Virus record (IMG/VR): IMGVR_UViG_3300004184_000006
Coordinates: 8,993-72,992 of that record
DNA from: a virus
Direction: 5' to 3' (one strand)
Length of the DNA stretch: 64,000 nt
Below the pieces are notes generated by a model. The model worked only from the letters and a program-made list of their open reading frames with translations. It had not been told where the DNA came from and did no database searches. The translations under genes were made by a program, and so were the position numbers. Positions 9,201-17,173 of the stretch are shown here, piece after piece (the first letter of the stretch is position 1; every line of letters begins with the position of its first letter).

Positions 9201-12200
9201 TCACACAGGTATTTTTAATCGAATTGCGTAACATCGCTACGTTATCCAAGCCCTTGAATACTGATATTACCCGCTCGATACCATCAATACTAACGTCTTC
9301 CTCATCTTCACGGGTACAAACGATTTCAAGGAAACTATCCGCCCCAGCCGCGCCCATCATGAGGTTATTAACCTTATCCTGACCGACTGACAAAGAAAGC
9401 ATTGAGTAAACTTCTAACGGGCTATTAGTTATCGGTGTCGCAGTGAGCAACAGCACGCCGTCATTAAGCGGTGTTTTTCCGCGAATAACCCACAGCTTAG
9501 CCTGTGCATCAATAGCCCGTTTAGCGGCTTTTGGCATGGACAAATATTTAGCTTCTTTGGTGTTGGTAGCGGTTGACGCGTTTTTAAGTAAATGCGCCTC
9601 GTCAATAACAATTGAGTCAATGCCTAGGTCTTCCAAGTTTGGCACATTCGACTTTTTATCATTCAAAACCGTAGTGATTTGCGTTAAAAAATACTTAACC
9701 TTTTCATCGGTCTTTTTATCGCCTGTCAGTTGAATACTGTCATCGTTACGGCGCAAGTAGTCGTAATATCCCTCAACACTTTCAACCTTAAGCCTAATCA
9801 TCTGGAACGCTTCATAGGTCATGAATATCTTGCTATGATTGTTTTCCATAATGCGGCTTAAATCAACAGCGTATTCGCTGGATTTAACAGACTCATTGCC
9901 GTCTTTATCAGCACGCAAGCCGATAAACAGCGTGTTATCCATTGATTCATACGCCTTGCCCGCCTCTTTTTTCCAGTTGGATAAGGTGCTGCTTGGCACT
10001 ACGAACAGGGTTTTGCTTTTAACGCCCATGTTGTGAGCATATTGGACGGCGGCTAATGCAGTGAAAGTGTTGTGAGTGACAACAAAGTCATCGGTAACAT
10101 AAAGATGGTCGGGTGCATCAACTGAGATACATTGAGCAGGTTTATTGCCGATTGATTTAACTTTTTTGATGTAACGGATAGGCGAATACTTAGTTTTTGG
10201 CAAAACTTTATCGCGCTTTCTTTGGCAGTAGAACGGGTTAATATCGCCGCTTAATTTCAGTGAAACAGTGTAGTGCAAGGCACAATAAACACGCTTGCCA
10301 TCAATATCAACGTAGGACGGTAATTTTTCTGTTATGGTCGCATTGCCGCCCAAACTTTGAGCGATAAATACCACGCCATCGGCTAACTGTTTTGATGAGC
10401 TTGAAAATTGTACCGTGATACCGTCTTTTGAAACGTAGCCGTCTGTGTCCATTAATCCGCGTAGCAGTTCAATTCTATCGTCTACACTTGATAGCAGGTA
10501 ATCAGTTGGAATGAATTTAGTTAGCGAGCTTGCACCATCTAAGCCATAGTCATTTAATGCTTGTCTTACGCTGTTTTTAACGCAACTAGATAACTTTGCT
10601 ATTCCGTAACGGGTGCAATGCGTTTCTTTGTTGTTTTTATTGGTGTTTAGTGAAACATCATCAGGTAATAACCCGCTTAACTTTTCAGCAATATCCAAAT
10701 CATCATTGCAAATTGTTAGTGAGATAGATTTATGCGTTATATTACCATCACCAAGTATAACGCCTAGCGCGTACGGGTGAATTAGCAATTCACCGCGACT
10801 AGAGAACTCAACGGGTTCAACCATAGGAATTGAATAATTAACCGTGCCATTATGCGGCAAGAAAAGGGATTGCCTAATCTCATTAAGGCTCTTAACTTGG
10901 TAGCCCATACGCCCATCTTTTGGGAACGGTATCAAGCCTTTTTTAACCTTGCCTATGTAGTTTCTATCAACTTGCGTTCTAACTGCCCACAAGTGTTCAT
11001 CGCAACATTCACTTTTTGCGCCATCATTAAAAGTGACTTCAAAAATCTCTTTTTCGCCTTGCGGATAAACGCCTGTAACTTTCGTAGGTTTGCCATTAGA
11101 TCCGATAACGTAATCACCAACCTTAATGTCACCCATTAATACCCATCCATTAGGCGTTAGAATCTTTGCATCTAACGGATTTGCTTTACCTAGTCCGACA
11201 TCAAACCCATTGACACCCTTAAATTCCCGCGACATTTGACGCACGAATGAGCATTGATAACCATGTAGCTTAAGTGCTGGATTCATGCCTGCAATGTTTA
11301 ATTCAGCTTCATCATCAATAGGTCTAAATTGTAGCTTGCTTGCATCGGTAGATTGCTGATTTAACCGCGCTTGAATATCAGGACGCGCCTTAACCCATGA
11401 ATCAAATTGCGTATTTGCAGTAACTGCCATTTTGCGCAATTCTCGCAGGGCTTCAATGTCACTTAAGTTATCGAACTTTGTACCGCCTGTACTTAGAGTA
11501 CGCTTAACAAGGTAATCACCGAACCGCTTATTAAGCTTGTCCTGATCGCTTAACTTGCTACCGTTAATTTCAATATCAACAACTTTTTGCCCTTTGTCAT
11601 TAACAACAATCATTGCATCGGGGTGTACGAACTGCTTAACAAACTCCAGTTTTTCTTCTGCGGTCACATAGGGACTAAACAAGGTAAAGTTCATTTGCGT
11701 TACATCTATGGTGTCAACGCGCTTTAAGGCCTCTGCACGTTGCCATGACAGCTTACCGATTAACTCATCATTGCCCTGTGCTTTTTCAATATCAGCATCT
11801 AACTTGGTTAAAAAATCAGCCAAGTTACCGACAAAATAATCATCTGCTTTGATGATGCTTTTCCCGTCACCCGATACACAGTAATCTGTACTTTCAAACT
11901 CGTTAAAATCATCACCTAACGCGACCTTGGCATCATCAAGGCTAATCCATTTTGACTTAGCCTTGTACATCATGCCTTCAAAAGATTTATCAGCGTCAGT
12001 GGCCTTTAATTCAATTGATGACACCTCGCCACGCCAATACTTGGTAAAGCCAGTTTTCATATCGTACTGGTTGCGCACCGATTTAAGCGCATCCTTGACC
12101 GAACTGCCAAGGCTTGATTTTGGGCTTTTTGCCAGCTTAGCGATAACCTGAATTTCAGTGGATAGCGCGGGATACTCTTCAAGGTAATTGAAGCCGCGTG

Positions 12201-13728
12201 TACCAACATGCTGCCCAATGGCTTGCTGCATGGACATTGCCACAACGGTTGCCTGCCAGTATTTTTCCTGCTCGCCATCGTCTAAACTGGATTTAATCTG
12301 ACTGGTAACTCCGCGCAACCATGCTGGAATATCCAAGCCGCGTGATGTGTTGCGCATGAACTCAGATACAGCATCAACATCTTGCCATGAAACCTTGCTT
12401 TCAAACGCCGCGTAGGGTGTGTCGCACTTGGACATAACCTGACTAGCAAAATTACTATCCTCATTATGTGGTAACGCTTCCCATGTGCCGTTTTTATAGC
12501 GCAATGTTTGACCTGACTGAATAACTGTATCGCCATTTTTATAAACAATAGGGTCGGTTTCAGTGGTATTAAGCAATGCCCAATCAATGCGTGAAGTCGG
12601 GAACTTTTTAAGCATCTTTGCCAGGTCTGGCATGGTTGCACTATTGGTTACGCGGTCGCGCCCCTCTGGGCTTAAATGGTGGGCATTAGGGTCTTTAGCG
12701 ATAAAGTCGCCCAGTATAAAACGCTCATTCGCGCCTTTGTACCAGTGGCCATCTAGGAACGTGTCCCATTGCACTTTTGCATCAATCAGGGTTTGCGGGG
12801 ATTGCTCGCGCACTTCGGCAATCTTTTCAGACGCTTCTTTGCTGAATTTGCGGAATACAATAACGTCCGTCATGGTATCAGCCGCCGCCGTGCCGAACAC
12901 CTCATTAGGCAAGCGATACGCACCTAAGAACTCGGCCATTAAAGAGGCTTTTTGTCGCACTGATACGCTTTTGGCATCCAAGCCAGTGACTACGGACGGG
13001 GGGACGATAAACGCGGCCAAGCCACGCGGTTTAAGCTTTTCCAGCGAGCGCAAAATGAAATAGCCCTGTAGGGTTTCTTTTTGGTATTTTGGATCGTGCA
13101 TAAAGTTATCGCCACGCGCCGATAATTCGCCGAATGGTACGTTCGTCACTACCGCATCATAAATTTCATCGGGGTTTGCTGCTGCCACCTTTTCAAACGG
13201 GGCAATCGTTGTGCTGTAAAACTCGTTATCATTAACAAGCTTTTGTACCATGCCGCTGGTTTCCGACAATTCCACCGCGTCAATAACTGAGTTTTTGGGG
13301 CTTGTTGCTCCAAAAATACCAGTACCACCACACGGGTCGAGTACCTTACCACCACTAAAGCCAAGCTCAGACAATAATGCCCACATACCTTCGGCTATAG
13401 GCGTAGGGGTGTAGTATTCGTATTGGCTACCTTTCATGCCGTCCGCGCCTGTCAATGCCCCGCCTTGACCTGAATACTTGGCCAATACAGCTTTATCAGC
13501 ATCGGTTACTTGATAATTTTCGTTTTTAACCTTGGCAAGTATTAACTCAGCGGCAGCGTTCGCGGCTTTGCGCTGCTTAGGCGTGCGCTTATCGTCATAC
13601 TCGTACAGGTGTGCGGTTGATACGCGCTCAATTTCAAGGGATTCAATCAATAGGTTTTTGAGTAAATCAAAGGCATCAAGCCCAGATTTAACAGACAGAA
13701 CAGCGGTTTTTAGCGTTTGGGTATTCAT
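6217..13728 (-). CDS. darB: DarB-like defence-against-restriction protein (N6-MTase-like domain + SNF2-type helicase) containing an intein
   Basis: YEYYTPTPIA, VLDPCGGTGIF, VVTNVPFG MTase motifs; GFDVGLGK|T Walker A, IVIDEAH, LLLTATPITNSP, QQRNGRGQRQGN helicase motifs. Confidence 0.9.
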   Translation of the reverse strand: MNTQTLKTAVLSVKSGLDAFDLLKNLLIESLEIERVSTAHLYEYDDKRTPKQRKAANAAAELILAKVKNENYQVTDADKAVLAKYSGQGGALTGADGMKGSQYEYYTPTPIAEGMWALLSELGFSGGKVLDPCGGTGIFGATSPKNSVIDAVELSETSGMVQKLVNDNEFYSTTIAPFEKVAAANPDEIYDAVVTNVPFGELSARGDNFMHDPKYQKETLQGYFILRSLEKLKPRGLAAFIVPPSVVTGLDAKSVSVRQKASLMAEFLGAYRLPNEVFGTAAADTMTDVIVFRKFSKEASEKIAEVREQSPQTLIDAKVQWDTFLDGHWYKGANERFILGDFIAKDPNAHHLSPEGRDRVTNSATMPDLAKMLKKFPTSRIDWALLNTTETDPIVYKNGDTVIQSGQTLRYKNGTWEALPHNEDSNFASQVMSKCDTPYAAFESKVSWQDVDAVSEFMRNTSRGLDIPAWLRGVTSQIKSSLDDGEQEKYWQATVVAMSMQQAIGQHVGTRGFNYLEEYPALSTEIQVIAKLAKSPKSSLGSSVKDALKSVRNQYDMKTGFTKYWRGEVSSIELKATDADKSFEGMMYKAKSKWISLDDAKVALGDDFNEFESTDYCVSGDGKSIIKADDYFVGNLADFLTKLDADIEKAQGNDELIGKLSWQRAEALKRVDTIDVTQMNFTLFSPYVTAEEKLEFVKQFVHPDAMIVVNDKGQKVVDIEINGSKLSDQDKLNKRFGDYLVKRTLSTGGTKFDNLSDIEALRELRKMAVTANTQFDSWVKARPDIQARLNQQSTDASKLQFRPIDDEAELNIAGMNPALKLHGYQCSFVRQMSREFKGVNGFDVGLGKANPLDAKILTPNGWVLMGDIKVGDYVIGSNGKPTKVTGVYPQGEKEIFEVTFNDGAKSECCDEHLWAVRTQVDRNYIGKVKKGLIPFPKDGRMGYQVKSLNEIRQSLFLPHNGTVNYSIPMVEPVEFSSRGELLIHPYALGVILGDGNITHKSISLTICNDDLDIAEKLSGLLPDDVSLNTNKNNKETHCTRYGIAKLSSCVKNSVRQALNDYGLDGASSLTKFIPTDYLLSSVDDRIELLRGLMDTDGYVSKDGITVQFSSSSKQLADGVVFIAQSLGGNATITEKLPSYVDIDGKRVYCALHYTVSLKLSGDINPFYCQRKRDKVLPKTKYSPIRYIKKVKSIGNKPAQCISVDAPDHLYVTDDFVVTHNTFTALAAVQYAHNMGVKSKTLFVVPSSTLSNWKKEAGKAYESMDNTLFIGLRADKDGNESVKSSEYAVDLSRIMENNHSKIFMTYEAFQMIRLKVESVEGYYDYLRRNDDSIQLTGDKKTDEKVKYFLTQITTVLNDKKSNVPNLEDLGIDSIVIDEAHLLKNASTATNTKEAKYLSMPKAAKRAIDAQAKLWVIRGKTPLNDGVLLLTATPITNSPLEVYSMLSLSVGQDKVNNLMMGAAGADSFLEIVCTREDEEDVSIDGIERVISVFKGLDNVAMLRNSIKNTCVIKTAKDVGDQIIVPEADTAIQDLQLGDDIIDMLKDYKGAFRYAIDSLNTAKNDPSKNRGDQQAFVRTMEKFDLTVELMAHPFNLLKNMELLVMDSELDDRATFFTFPKEQLALAKQVIEKFNSKKIKSVRPRMNPYTRDGAITDNISKTDEVTGTIKEWIELNIESYLIDSDTRIVIDTMETLEITAFEDLADTEGLTLNCTIPPKIAALLDNVSKEIMNPRGMVKDGDTVKKSSVVKQIIFCDILATHNKIRRLLTQKCGIPASKIATVTGKTNNEADDILDVQNGFNADGDDNKYQIILANKKAEVGINLQIGTQAIHHLTIGWTPDSLQQRNGRGQRQGNRTAKVNIFFYDADGTFDKQKRSMVERKGDWIGSLMSDQSTNKIDVQGGMSREQMEALMESVGDKDAMERYQENLQAKEAEARAKSTRERQLINLTTIAKQTEWLQANPTAVAYVQAALNDLNNLTLARDKIKKREAKTETAKIKNASALSDLNDSIRVLEEKIDGSCDFFKIDYSGEIDKSYPDAIGAGIIVREVKNWSYNTKGKSFLEILKGYDYIRYDITSGGPIATQWQDNKTMAEGMIESSVKAVETQAADKGAFPASIARAIANGTGVILAGIPIVVGAFVLDADDTEEAPSFNIVTEVSKDYANVIYVYDFKKGGMASSNNFRLHAANIASVKVILPDDNGYTDMCKRAAKLEDTQAYATESGVKLYSDYSSEVSGYRTKAQKFVFYSKSYTLPPPYFSIILNDTLATTPLLKKIAKEQSKVVKVVDTTSSRYDVKVSVDKSLTLADSGKSYVSGISELDIIAALMHYAKAHGLTIGEDDFVGIDAGFKDRSYGFLDDIMEKYFDYSPVIPALEEAVKSVNKVADIEPFVHEHLLKELSFLSPEIADKMVKSGNYAFRIIEKASKALVDSEIDKLTPVFEKILLNAGFPATDHEMIVYAIKRIITSTYMTNPARESSIAGKLAGNLNAANQIMKAAANAGVLPNE
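10069..11184 (-). mobile_element. Class 3 intein (372 aa) with LAGLIDADG homing endonuclease
   Basis: Starts ANPLDAKILTPNGW after GLGK; CCDEHLW block B; AQCISV block F; ends VVTHN/T; YALGVILGDG and LLRGLMDTDG LAGLIDADG motifs. Confidence 0.92.
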
Positions 13729-13754
13729 AACTAGCCTCGTGTGTAATTGAGGCT

Positions 13755-13794
13755 AGTTTATAGGGGTGTTAGCGGGTGTTTTATTGGGTTTTTA
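13755..13794 (-). promoter_or_regulatory. Late promoter 2 (darB operon)
   Basis: TAAAAACCC (13794-13786), 25 nt, TAAACT (13760-13755). Confidence 0.75.
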
Positions 13795-14209
13795 CAGTGT
13801 TGATATGCTTCTCAATTACAATCCCTATGTGAGCTACCACGCTAGGACATAGACCACCACCTTTCGGTAAAAAATACCCGCCTTTAGGTGAGAAAATTGA
13901 CCGCATGGATTGAACTATAAAAGAGCTGTCTCCATCGCTTTGCCATATCGCGCTTATCAAGCGGGTAACGCACATGACCCACTCATGTGACTCCAAGTGC
14001 GAACAGTTGATAAATATCTCATAGGGCTTTCCATTGAGATTATTAATGGTTATGTACATAGCACACTCTAAACCAGTTGGCTTAATTTTGTAGGTGTAGC
14101 CCTGTAGCACATCTTCGCGGTCTGGCTTTGGGACGGCAATAACGACCACTTCTTTTTTATCGCCTGCCACCGCATAGCCTGTAATTTTTTTAGTTATTGC
14201 CTTAGTCAT
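13781..14209 (-). CDS. Stand-alone TSCPD-domain protein resembling the N-terminal part of class II ribonucleotide reductase subunit NrdJb
   Basis: KKITGYAV...VLQGYTYKIK...MYITIN...PYEIFINC...TRLISAI...IFSPKGGYF...PSVVAHIG follows the NrdJb pattern; no C-terminal Cys-rich tail. Confidence 0.75.
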   Translation of the reverse strand: MTKAITKKITGYAVAGDKKEVVVIAVPKPDREDVLQGYTYKIKPTGLECAMYITINNLNGKPYEIFINCSHLESHEWVMCVTRLISAIWQSDGDSSFIVQSMRSIFSPKGGYFLPKGGGLCPSVVAHIGIVIEKHINTVKTQ

Positions 14210-14364
14210 TTTTTGCCGCCTTTATAGGCTTTTTTATTCAAATGTTCCCAGTGCTTCTTTGGCTTTTTCTTTAATTCGATTGGCTTAATATCACAATAGT
14301 GATGTCTTAAAAAAAAGGTTGTTTTTGGATATTGCTGATAAGGGAATCCATTAGCTATGCTCAT
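14206..14364 (-). CDS. Small basic hypothetical protein (52 aa, below ORF-track cutoff)
   Basis: MSIANGFPYQQYPKTTFFLRHH...KGGKK; stop overlaps next ATG (ATGA). Confidence 0.5.
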   Translation of the reverse strand: MSIANGFPYQQYPKTTFFLRHHYCDIKPIELKKKPKKHWEHLNKKAYKGGKK

Positions 14365-14551
14365 TCTTTACCACCTTGATAGTGTGCGTTAGTAGTGGGC
14401 ATTCAGCGTGCCTTGTATCTGCATCAACATTGTCCTTAATAGGCAAGTCCTTATCTAAGTAACAATAATACAAATACCCATTGGTTTCATGAGAAAAAGG
14501 GCATTTATGACACCCGCTGGAAACTATTACTTTTTCTGGCAATTCACTCAT
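14351..14551 (-). CDS. Small Cys-rich hypothetical protein
   Basis: CHKCPF...YCYL...RHAECPL, a common small phage Zn-binding pattern. Confidence 0.6.
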   Translation of the reverse strand: MSELPEKVIVSSGCHKCPFSHETNGYLYYCYLDKDLPIKDNVDADTRHAECPLLTHTIKVVKNEHS

Positions 14552-14766
14552 GATTGCACCTCTGAAACCGATATTGTTAATTCAATTGCAATATTGGCAC
14601 GGCTGCTATTGCTTTTTATGCCGCTAATGTTGTTTAGCTTGCCGCACCATTCTTGGCAGTCTTCTTTATCAGCCCACAATTGTTCGCCTAAAAATCCTTT
14701 TAATGGGTTTTTAGCTTCACATTTTTCTCTGATTATGTACAGGGTGATTGATGATGGGTTTTGCAT
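14548..14766 (-). CDS. Hypothetical protein
   Basis: 72 aa, AAGGA RBS, ATGA coupling to next gene. Confidence 0.6.
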   Translation of the reverse strand: MQNPSSITLYIIREKCEAKNPLKGFLGEQLWADKEDCQEWCGKLNNISGIKSNSSRANIAIELTISVSEVQS

Positions 14767-14805
14767 TTTTGAAATCCTTAAGCGTGGATAAAAGTGATAA
14801 GCGTA

Positions 14806-14871
14806 TGGTGTTGTGGCAATACTTGCTTAAGGCACTTTAACGCGGGTAATTAATCCGCGTACAGCCACAAC
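14806..14871 (-). ncRNA. C4-like antisense RNA no. 2
   Basis: GTTGTGGC/GCCACAAC closing stem + ACCA, two inner hairpins, loop CTTAAGCAA complementary to downstream GCTTA/GCTTAAG at the RBS; TGnTATAAT promoter at 14887-14879. Confidence 0.65.
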
Positions 14872-14887
14872 GAGGTAAATTATAACA

Positions 14888-17173
14888 TCAATCCGTAGAA
14901 TAAATAACGCACTTATTGGTTAAATTCCCCACCAATGAGGCTGGGTGAGTTGCCGACGGTGATAAATTAACCGATATATCAGACCAAAAAACAAACGCAT
15001 TATTATCTGGACTCCAAGCTCTGTGAAGGTAAGTATTGGCAGAATTAACAACAAATGATACCTGCTCCTGTATCGACTGACAGACACCATAAACTGAAAT
15101 AGATTCAATGCTGGCAATGGCTATACTATCCTGTCCCTGCCACGATAACCCTGCGGCATTAACAACAATAGAGCCTACCGCGCCGCAATAATTATCCTGT
15201 ACTGAAATACCTATGGCATTAATGATAATGCCAGTCGAAAGCCCTATTGCCTTTGCGCTCTGAGATTGCTCAGACTTACCTATAGCATTAACAGCAGTGT
15301 ACGAAACAGAACTAATAGCACGCGAAAACTGAGATTGTTCAGACTTGCCTACGCCACTTACAATAATTCCTAATGATGATCCTATTGCTTTTGTGCTTTG
15401 ATACTGCTCAGACAGGGCCGTAGCATTAACGATAATAGATGAAACTGTGCCTATTGCTTTTGTGCTTTGCGCTTGAATAGAACTGCCTACGACACCAGAT
15501 AATGCAATTGTACCAATTGCGGTAGTCGATTGCGCCTGCTCAGATTGCCCAGCACTATTAACGCCTAAAAATGCAACCGATGCTAATGCTTTTGATACCT
15601 GACTTTGTGCCGAATAACCAATGCCGTTTACATTCGCAAAGATAACAGAGGCTACCGCGCTTAAGCCCTGTGTTTGTTCTGATTTTCCTATGCCATTGAT
15701 GGCTAATGACGCAACATTAGGAGAGGCTTGTGTACTTTGTTGCTGTAAGCTGTTACCAACACCGTTGCAATTAACCAAGCCTGTGGCATAAGTAGATTGT
15801 AATTGCGTGCTATATCCTATTCCACTACTTCCTGCCAATGATACCGTGCCAATTGCGCTGGCTACCTGAGATTGATTACTTTGACCTGTGCCATTAATCG
15901 CAAGGAATGATAATGAACCTACGGCGGTAATATTTTGGGCTTGATTACTGCTACCTATTCCGCTAATAGTGGCAAAGGAAACGCTGCCAACAGCCTGCGT
16001 AACTTGCTTCTGACTGCTCGCTGAAATACCACTAACGCCTGAAAAGCTAACCGATGGAACGGCTCGCGTATCTTGCTGCTGCCAGCTCTGCCCTGTACAA
16101 AAAACACTTAATGTTGCTATTGAAGCTATAGCACTGGAGGCGTGCCGCTGATTGCTTACCGCAATGCCGTTAAGCATTAAATTAGCAACAGAGCCAACCG
16201 CGTTTACTAATTGACCCTGCTCTGATTTTGCTACGCCATTAACCGTAGCAAATGACAATGAGCCTACGGCATAAGATGCTTGTTGTTGAACACTGCCCGC
16301 AATGCAGTTAATTGTTAAATTAGCAACAGAACTTACAGCACTAGACGATTGTTTTTGCTCTGACTTTGCTACGCCATTAACGGCAATAGATGAAACGGTG
16401 GCAACAGCACTAGATAATTGACTCTGAACGCTTAATACTGAACCATTAACACTAATAGGACCGCTGGATGGTAATGATGGAACAAAGGTTTTATATGGTT
16501 TAAAAACCTGCCACGGATTAGCTGAAATGCTTTTAATTTCAGATAACGATAGCTCTCTATTCCATACTAAAACTAAATCCAGTTCACTTTGGCAATACTC
16601 GCTAGCATGTCCGAAGCCAATATCAAAAGTTCGTGCAGTCCACGTTCCGCTAATAATGCCCGTTGGAGTTTGAACCACCCCATCTATATAAGCTTTACCG
16701 ACCGTACCGTTTTTTGTAATAACAATGGTTTGCGGTTTTCCCGCAACAACTGAACCTGTCGCAGAAAATTGTCTATCCGCATCAGATAATGTACTTCCCC
16801 ATATCTGCTTATTGGTCAGATTAGATGGTGCGTAGACTGTAAAGTCATCGCCCATTCCAAAAAGTGACTGTGCATTTTGATCAACAGCTTTGTAATTCTG
16901 AATAACAAGAACAGTAAAGTTCTCGCTATTTATTGGGGTATTAGATTTTGATAATCGATAGGCTGCATTAGCGAATAACTTGCCATGCAAGCCATTTGAG
17001 GACGATGGAGTTGCGGCTGTACCTGTTAATACCGCTAATTCACCGTTCACGGCATTTCTAACAATGCCGTTTTGCAGGTTTACAGCAACTAAAAGTCCTC
17101 TGCCTAGTCCTGTAGTAATAGTGTTTACATAGGCTTTAGGTTGTATACGCCGTTTATTATTAACGGGAAACAT
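14888..17173 (-). CDS. Fibre/adhesin-like protein: N-terminal LamG/ConA-like domain plus about 21 repeats of about 23 aa
   Basis: IVITKNGTVGKAYIDG...LDLVLVWNRELSLSEI (LamG-like); repeats xVNGxGxSxQxQxxxAxxSVxxx. Confidence 0.7.
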   Translation of the reverse strand: MFPVNNKRRIQPKAYVNTITTGLGRGLLVAVNLQNGIVRNAVNGELAVLTGTAATPSSSNGLHGKLFANAAYRLSKSNTPINSENFTVLVIQNYKAVDQNAQSLFGMGDDFTVYAPSNLTNKQIWGSTLSDADRQFSATGSVVAGKPQTIVITKNGTVGKAYIDGVVQTPTGIISGTWTARTFDIGFGHASEYCQSELDLVLVWNRELSLSEIKSISANPWQVFKPYKTFVPSLPSSGPISVNGSVLSVQSQLSSAVATVSSIAVNGVAKSEQKQSSSAVSSVANLTINCIAGSVQQQASYAVGSLSFATVNGVAKSEQGQLVNAVGSVANLMLNGIAVSNQRHASSAIASIATLSVFCTGQSWQQQDTRAVPSVSFSGVSGISASSQKQVTQAVGSVSFATISGIGSSNQAQNITAVGSLSFLAINGTGQSNQSQVASAIGTVSLAGSSGIGYSTQLQSTYATGLVNCNGVGNSLQQQSTQASPNVASLAINGIGKSEQTQGLSAVASVIFANVNGIGYSAQSQVSKALASVAFLGVNSAGQSEQAQSTTAIGTIALSGVVGSSIQAQSTKAIGTVSSIIVNATALSEQYQSTKAIGSSLGIIVSGVGKSEQSQFSRAISSVSYTAVNAIGKSEQSQSAKAIGLSTGIIINAIGISVQDNYCGAVGSIVVNAAGLSWQGQDSIAIASIESISVYGVCQSIQEQVSFVVNSANTYLHRAWSPDNNAFVFWSDISVNLSPSATHPASLVGNLTNKCVIYSTD

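Follow-up and report, generated by a model that had tools for sequence, protein, structure and literature searches.

The window analysed here is a 64-kilobase (kb) stretch of an IMG/VR virus record (72,992 bases in length, with an estimated completeness of 85%). We observed that an element of this window, E1 (14887-14767, minus strand), probably specifies a structured antisense RNA of about 66 nucleotides (nt), placed at the 5' end of the very operon that it would control. This operon comprises open reading frames (ORFs) of 72, 66 and 52 amino acids (aa), a TSCPD ORF, and DarB-like and Ulx-like genes. That E1 acts as an RNA-pairing switch, with a hairpin apex directed at two sites of the leader that carries it, is well supported by the sequence comparisons given below. 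Judged by its genes (PmgG-like, PmgB-like, tail sheath, tail tube, Ulx-like and DarB-like), the window phage is P1-like, and its sequence is contained in DNA runs from freshwater sediment. A second element of the window, E2 (30441-30336, minus strand), and four elements in other virus records (L003e, L251e, L005e and L006e) are compared with it.

Pairing of the E1 apex with two leader targets

The apex recognition sequence in hairpin 2 of E1, CCTTAAGC, is a perfect 8-nt complement of GCTTAAGG (14783-14776) at the second target. At the first target, GCTTA (14802-14798) pairs with the TAAGC of the apex, and ATAC also pairs with the GTAT of the hairpin 3' strand if a 2-nt bulge is allowed. One recognition sequence is complementary to two like sites on the same transcript, both of them downstream. 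No other ribosome-binding site in the genome carries the 8-nt target. The apexes of E1, E2, L003e and L251e all contain the anti-Shine-Dalgarno letters CCUU, which fits a translational block.

The comparison with a natural relative carries most of the argument. A viral search with the N-terminus of the DarB-like protein gave L003 (91% identical), the only relative of the E1 operon that was found. The head of the L003 operon consists of TGCTATACT, a short extra hairpin, and then an RNA that is a near copy of E2 rather than of E1, with the apex CCTTGAAC; behind this RNA come TTGTTCAA and then CACGTTCAAGGATTTTCAA-ATG-CAAAACCCA. In an alignment of E1 with L003 that spans hairpin 2 through the start codon, mean column identity is 80%. 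The apex block, CCTT[A/G]A[G/A]CAAG, differs between the two at two letters. The 18-nt target block, ATCCACG[C/T]T[T/C]AAGGATTT, differs solely at the two letters opposite these apex changes, so that the target at the ribosome-binding site reads GTTCAAGG in L003. All eight apex/target pairs are kept in both E1 and L003, two of them through changes on both sides. By our own count, the odds that two substitutions would hit those two of the 18 positions with the right letters are about 1 in 1400.

We further evaluated E1 against shuffled sequences. For the 65-68-nt core, the predicted structure is a closing stem enclosing two hairpins, with a folding energy of -23.3 kcal/mol (z = -3.3) that was reached by 2 of 200 shuffles. 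Among 5000 dinucleotide shuffles of the 112-nt E1 leader, an 8-base-pair (bp) closing stem around 30-70 nt appeared in 70, and this stem together with an 8-nt complement of the enclosed part to the last 25 nt appeared in none. Taken one by one, the features are not unusual. Genome-wide, 10 ORF starts have an upstream complement of at least 8 nt, so complementarity alone is common. A crude descriptor (stem plus double target) found E2 and three look-alikes in coding regions (4 overlapping hits), and it missed E1, whose first target matches over just 5 contiguous letters. The weight lies in the combination of features in E1 and in the comparative evidence. These common single features, along with a promoter motif that is not significant, would fit a reading of E1 as chance inverted repeats in a short spacer, or a protein-binding site at the DNA level, with no function as RNA. 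We consider this highly improbable in view of the 0 of 5000 shuffles, the compensating changes in L003, and the recurrence of the design in five other elements with different letters.

E2 and related elements in other virus records

E2 lies before the gene for a 229-aa antirepressor, between PmgG-like and PmgB-like genes, which is the region of P1 immI. Its parts on the minus strand are, in order, TGATACAAT, a 7-bp closing stem (GTACGGA/TCCGTAC), a weak hairpin 1, CCTTGAACAAGG and TCCA. The sequence CTATCGTTCAA occurs twice in E2; behind the second copy come AAGG and then the antirepressor ATG. The statistics of E2 are weaker than those of E1 (14 of 5000 shuffles; fold z = -1.0). An insert of RNA and antirepressor gene behind PmgG was not seen in any of the 30 loci read of 80 PmgG-like relatives; there, the next structural gene follows directly. 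The complement of the E2 apex core, CGTTCAA, stands at 2134-2128 (minus), 5 nt before the ATG of a 523-aa ORF (553-2124). It is one of 16 such 7-mers genome-wide and may well be there by chance.

A covariance model from E2 and L003e (R1), and a related E2-type model (R2), were built in the present analysis. R1 found a third member, L251e (1554-1501, minus; record G003), with 27.8 bits (E 3.6e-5). In L251e hairpin 1 is conserved and hairpin 2 differs, with a loop, ACCTTGA, that matches TCAAGGT seven letters past the RNA. The module (L251 1464-1570, minus) heads a 193-aa ORF with a GmrSD_N domain, and a weaker TTAAGGG stands at the ribosome-binding site of this ORF. Across E2, L003e (1470-1523) and L251e, every one of the 43 cells of the model structure is paired, and both partners have changed in 6 of the 15 pairs, a result that 2 of 500 shuffles reach; as the alignment was fitted to the model, this count leans towards structure. 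Over 92 loci R1 found L003/L250 and L251 only, and a search of 50 whole virus records with R2, 43 from the 80 PmgG loci and 7 from Ant loci, gave no hit. An R1 hit at 7-61 of the window (13.3 bits, E 0.36) was rejected, being in coding sequence.

Two further elements precede Ant homologues. L005e (2416-2500; same record as L251e) has a 6-bp closing stem, two hairpins and GCCA. L006e (2366-2490) consists of a 77-nt three-way RNA, then an intrinsic terminator, and then an 8-nt target; as the terminator precedes the target, a discrete small RNA is implied. In both, the apex or junction is complementary to sites in the element's own leader, and neither has an Rfam match at E<=1. In two virus records, at L007 and L008, an antirepressor homologue has the Rfam Betaproteobacteria-1 RNA (RF02932, 57.5 bits) about 350 nt ahead of it, at 2028-2154; this may be one more RNA that guards an ant gene.

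The elements have several features in common. The first target is at the same relative place in E1, E2, L003e and L251e, and in these four the second overlaps AAGG near the start codon. E1, E2 and L003e share the hairpin 2 motif CCTT-NNN-CAAG, have tandem targets that match it, and stand before an ORF that begins with ATGCAAAA. In E1, E2, L251e, L005e and L006e, 6-7 letters separate the end of the -10 hexamer from the first G of the closing stem; L003e has a 16-nt hairpin between the -10 and the stem. The closing stem is followed by NCCA in E1 (ACCA), E2 (TCCA) and L005e (GCCA).

The sharing extends into coding sequence. The leader and the first ~10 codons are common to two unrelated first ORFs, at 14766-14736 of the window (MQNPSSI, 72 aa) and at 1561-1590 of L003 (MQNPTSI, a 203-aa sulfotransferase-like ORF), and the Ant gene behind E2 has the same ATGCAAAA start. 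From these sequences, the boundary of the cassette seems to lie inside the first ORF.

Searches for further copies were mostly negative. BLASTN of 13700-15000 gave no match in phage and plasmid collections. The N-terminus of the DarB-like protein had no relative in genome contigs and one viral locus, L003. A viral scan with AAATCCCTTNNNCAAGG gave at least 118 stretches, and among the 119 matches examined L003 alone had the architecture. We also read all 37 stretches from a metagenome scan with AAGGATTTN{4,5}ATGCAAAACCC and took them as chance, as we did the four hits of the hairpin 1 pattern in genome contigs, all of which were coding (recA-like and others).

Comparison with C4 and P4 CI

The regulation of phage antirepressors by C4-type RNAs is textbook knowledge, and the principle has been known since 1990. 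E1 resembles the C4 of P1 and P7 (immI operon c4-icd-ant; RF01695, clan CL00128) in being an RNA at the head of its own operon in a P1-like phage. Like P1 C4, it has a closing stem and two hairpins (the minimum-energy fold of 14871-14804 has the three-way topology of P1 C4 folded alongside), recognition in the hairpin 2 loop with specificity set by a few letters, and a CCA-type 3' tail. In both, one target is just past the RNA (a2) and one is on the ribosome-binding site of the first small ORF (b2), as annotated in P1. The comparison draws on the mechanism of C4 as given in an extract of PMC5320573.

The differences are equally clear. The closing stem has 17 bp in P1 C4 and 8 bp in E1, or 12 bp (8 + 4) with the inner GUAC/GUAU pairing. 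C4 pairs a'/b' with a2/b2, whereas E1 has one recognition element for two like targets, the first target repeating the core of the second. The a' of C4 lies in a 3' junction, which E1 does not have; the pairing of the E1 apex with the ribosome-binding site resembles b'/b2. E1 has neither an upstream a1/b1 decoy nor a 5' leader. C4 controls icd-ant, whereas E1 would control a DarB/Ulx-type operon, and it is E2 that precedes an antirepressor. In P1 itself, the only promoter at darB is a predicted sigma-70 one, in a 76-nt spacer, and across the whole of the P1 record the single C4 match is that at immI.

RF01695 had no match in the whole window at its gathering score (45 bits). At E<=10, it gave none in 800-nt slices around E1 and E2 and none in the whole virus record; P1 c4, used as positive control, scored 68.8 bits. 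The model found 9 of 50 related virus records, and the first ORF behind the match was an antirepressor or Rha-like in five and of no named family in four. In one related provirus, record G013 (L256, L261), two RF01695 matches lie 2.3 kb apart on one strand (57.8 and 37.2 bits, the second sub-threshold), and PHROG gives no match for the ORF behind the first of them. RF03163 (c4-a1b1) did not match E1, where the -10 box 8 nt before the stem leaves no room for an upstream a1/b1. Nor did any other Rfam family match the predicted E1 RNA. In Acinetobacter baumannii, several differently keyed C4-like small RNAs occur in one genome, according to an extract of PMC5320573; those RNAs match Rfam C4, and E1 does not.

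E1 is therefore C4-type in topology and logic, not in family membership. The original prediction had named it a C4-type RNA switch with an apex facing two targets of its own leader, the second on the ribosome-binding site. The topology and logic of that claim stand and the switch at the RNA level is backed by the compensating changes in L003, but membership of the family does not hold, the Infernal check against Rfam C4 being negative for E1 and E2. Every sequence part that it quoted is present on the minus strand with each letter correct, and its pointer to E2 as a matching architecture with other recognition letters was confirmed, E2 lying before an antirepressor gene.

P4 CI, compared here by description only, is a short RNA processed from the transcript under its control, and its seqB pairs with two like sites, seqA and seqC (PMC4825925, in extract). 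E1 has the same economy of a single recognition sequence for two like sites. This logic, and a first target that is without a Shine-Dalgarno sequence and so would have no direct effect on ribosome binding, would fit a mode of action in which pairing mainly triggers premature (Rho-dependent) termination in the leader, and not a ribosome block. We hold this mode to be decidedly unlikely. The P4 CI sites flank the RNA (seqA is upstream) and the outcome is termination of transcription, whereas both E1 sites are downstream. The second target lies on AAGG by the start codon in E1, E2, L003e and L251e, like b2 in P1, and the E1 leader has no terminator-like site.

E1 is also like the E2-type RNA, which shares with it the spacing from -10 to stem, the three-way fold and the tandem targets; L003e occupies the exact place of E1 before the DarB-like operon. 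Read from its sequence, E1 would be an antisense autoregulator of the C4/CI kind, built on a scaffold that is different and smaller. Neither hairpin 1 nor the closing stem of E1 is related in sequence to that of E2. It would fit the sequences, on weak evidence, that E1 is a diverged paralogue of E2 with an outer stem added around a GUAC...GUAU core.

Proposed mechanism

We propose that the extended -10 promoter would start the transcript at or beside the first base of the closing stem. The RNA would fold into a three-way junction of closing stem, hairpin 1 and hairpin 2, and the apex of hairpin 2 would present CCUU and four specificity letters. The apex would pair with the site directly past the RNA and with the site on the ribosome-binding site of the first ORF. 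RNA that is freed, or that outlasts the messenger RNA (mRNA), would accumulate and bind both leader sites of later transcripts. Ribosome entry at the 72-aa ORF would be blocked, and the genes behind would be lowered through translational coupling and polarity. The likely effect is that the anti-restriction operon would be kept low in the prophage state. Since the operon transcript would itself be the source of the RNA, the RNA is expected to build up and to exert negative feedback, like C4 on icd-ant in P1.

Within this scheme, the firing of the promoter, the release of the RNA (at its ACCA tail, perhaps by RNase P), its action in trans and its timing in the life cycle (silencing in the prophage, a burst on infection) are what we infer. 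Hairpin 2 abuts the closing stem, and ACCA follows the stem; the two together resemble the acceptor/T-arm minihelix of a tRNA and would agree with the substrate rule of RNase P. ARAGORN found no tRNA-like gene here. As the -10 places the start at the first stem base, no 5' leader need be removed from the transcript of the E1 promoter. Only read-through transcripts from the tail-fibre gene are predicted to have a 5' leader for RNase P.

The same facts could be read differently. In a purely cis-acting 5' leader, a long-range pseudoknot between the apex and the ribosome-binding site would set translation at a fixed or condition-dependent (e.g. temperature-dependent) level, with no free RNA. Transcription is predicted to start where the closing stem begins, E1, E2, L003e and L251e have no terminator between RNA and target, NCCA is missing in three of the six elements, and the co-variation fits pairing in cis as well as in trans. 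However, two like targets are hard to reconcile with one apex in cis, and L006e has a terminator between RNA and target. NCCA is present in three of the six elements, against about 1 in 64 expected per element, and the closed three-way fold resembles those of the released RNAs C4 and CI. A purely cis-acting leader is, in our judgement, unlikely.

Several observations weigh against the antisense RNA that we favour. A two-hexamer promoter scan made no call at the E1 site, where the promoter is placed by its extended -10 only; the motif TGNTAYAMT is found 7 times in the window, where 11 would be expected, and so has no significance by itself. E1 has no terminator between the RNA and the targets and no 5' leader, so that release of a free RNA is not evident. 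The absence of RF01695 from the window has been described. The co-variation comes from two sequences, for which a shuffle control (120 of 500) was uninformative. NCCA is replaced by GTTA in L003e and by GCTA in L251e. The cores of E2 and L003e are no more stable than shuffles (z -1.0 and -0.8), and the minimum-energy fold of L003e differs from that of the model. Run on the window with filters off at E<=10, R1 returned E2 at 82.6 bits and chance hits, and not E1; the local alignment of E1 with E2 (TGTAC through CAAG) is weak, being reached by 11 of 2000 shuffles. A pattern for the E1 core had no hit in viral contigs, and since the E1 scaffold has no second example, its fold is taken from energy alone. 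Three metatranscriptome runs gave sparse contigs (depth 2-5) across parts of 12000-17000, one piece being 14397-14696; these contigs carry neither ends nor strand and are uninformative on the RNA.

Possible cross-talk between E1 and E2

The apexes of E1 and E2 differ at 2 of 8 letters. We estimated short-duplex energies with a crude model that ignores the folds of the RNAs (whole-sequence duplexfold matrices were uninformative). The E1 apex gave -12.7 kcal/mol on the E1 ribosome-binding-site target and -5.6 on that of E2. The E2 apex gave -8.9 on the E1 target and -7.6 on its own. On the first targets, each apex gave -1.8 on that of the other. From these model energies, the E1 RNA should ignore the antirepressor leader and the E2 RNA may touch the anti-restriction leader, so a one-way link from E2 to the E1 leader is possible. 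The two modules had been thought not to cross-react, which these values do not bear out. L003 keeps the E2 apex at its DarB-like operon; this fits, as far as the sequences go, a re-keying of E1 where both modules share a genome, with the L003 record being only 24% complete.

The operon behind E1

All ORFs from the 72-aa ORF to at least a 97-aa ORF at 3732 are on the same strand and overlap or nearly abut, with one gap, of 52 nt, before the DarB-like start. As this chain runs into the DarB-like and Ulx-like genes, E1 heads a DarB/Ulx-type anti-restriction operon, and these two genes are likely its main cargo. The gene order darB-ulx is common to P1 and the window phage. The operon had been foreseen as one without an antirepressor, which agrees with its content, and as three tiny ORFs with an NrdJb-like gene; all four are present, but the operon continues into the genes for the 2503-aa DarB-like and the Ulx-like proteins. 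Coordinates are collected in Table 1.

The DarB-like ORF has no Pfam support for a methyltransferase domain at 1e-3. It carries a LAGLIDADG intein (11184-10069, minus), which splits the first helicase motif between GLGK and TFTALA, and P1 DarB is continuous at this site. An 8-bp hairpin, CTAGCCTC...GAGGCTAG (13756-13731, minus), sequesters the GAGG just before the DarB-like ATG and is kept in L003 (about 3601-3630) as a 7-bp version. Because this conserved hairpin sequesters its GAGG, translation of the DarB-like ORF may depend on upstream events, and the hairpin is a candidate for a second layer of translational control.

The TSCPD/NrdJb-like ORF (13781-14209) stands alone in the anti-restriction operon, with no reductase gene adjacent; in L001, the TSCPD homologue comes after a 720-aa reductase ORF. 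Its relatives were found at two loci, both in unrelated split-NrdJ phage and without an RNA element. The 66-aa Cys-rich ORF is 45-53% identical in three other virus records, where it stands behind a cro-like 74-aa ORF in an early-type operon. No RNA module was seen upstream of the two relatives read (L267, L268; 3 new loci). No relatives of the 72-aa ORF were found.

Table 1. Positions of the E1 and E2 features and of the genes behind E1 in the window
Feature	Position	Strand	Remark
TGA stop of 761-aa tail-fibre-like ORF	14890-14888	minus	directly precedes the extended -10
Extended -10 promoter element TGTTATAAT	14887-14879	minus	sequence and pattern search; no recognisable -35
Closing stem, 8 bp, GTTGTGGC with GCCACAAC	14871-14864 with 14817-14810	minus	seven letters after TGTTATAAT; TGTA next
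Hairpin 1, CGCGG-ATTAATTAC-CCGCG	14859-14841	minus	between TGTA and TTAA
Hairpin 2, AGTGC-CTTAAGCAA-GTATT	14836-14818	minus	after TTAA
Apex recognition sequence CCTTAAGC in hairpin 2	14832-14825	minus	anti-Shine-Dalgarno CCTT and 4 specificity letters
3' ACCA	14809-14806	minus	after closing stem
Target 1, TACGCTTA	14805-14798	minus	adjoins ACCA; 11-letter spacer to target 2
Target 2, CACGCTTAAGG	14786-14776	minus	overlaps Shine-Dalgarno AAGGA (14779-14775) of 72-aa ORF
ATG of 72-aa ORF	14766	minus	sequence
Predicted small RNA, ~66 nt	14871-14806	minus	fold; closing stem, hairpins 1 and 2, 3' ACCA
First ORF, 72 aa	14766-14548	minus	no family match
66-aa Cys-rich ORF (CHxC...C...C)	14551-14351	minus	64% identical in L003; overlapping stop/start codons
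52-aa ORF	14364-14206	minus	overlapping stop/start codons
142-aa TSCPD/NrdJb-like ORF	14209-13781	minus	overlapping stop/start codons
DarB-like gene, 2503 aa	13728-6217	minus	BLASTP against P1 DarB E 3e-53, helicase part; Pfam SNF2/ResIII and Helicase_C
Ulx-like gene	6242-5817	minus	PHROG Ulx-like anti-restriction, 1.6e-19
E2 module	30441-30336	minus	before 229-aa antirepressor gene 30335-29646 (PHROG Ant, 4.7e-61)
E2 RNA	30426-30373	minus	hairpin CCTT-GAAC-AAGG; apex CCTTGAAC
E2 GTTCAA targets	30367-30362 and 30352-30347	minus	two ATCGTTCAA targets

Implications

Three things seem to be new here: the scaffold lies outside RF01695, it is placed before a DarB/Ulx-type operon (and, in a relative, before a GmrSD_N ORF), and a natural pair of orthologous leaders has been re-keyed. 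A literature search joining 'C4 antisense' with darB and anti-restriction gave no paper with both among the matches listed. Annotation based on models misses a share of phage immunity RNAs, as the window phage and the three related records G001, G003 and G004 carry such RNAs and are without an RF01695 hit.

A wider reading, which we put forward tentatively and would not yet lean on, is that E1, E2, L003e and L251e are an undescribed family of small, promoter-proximal, tRNA-minihelix-like antisense RNAs. These would be portable, re-keyable translational locks of environmental P1-like phages, with CCUU and 3-4 specificity letters at the hairpin tip and tandem sites in the leader. The cassette, reaching to the first ten codons, may have been placed before antirepressor, DarB/Ulx and GmrSD-type operons and re-keyed when two share a genome. 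A phage could in this way run several partly insulated circuits, one of them gating counter-defence.

If E1 works as read here, an antisense RNA gates the expression of a counter-defence system. It would then also be a natural and easily re-keyed translational lock, in which two apex letters and two target letters switch specificity between natural relatives.

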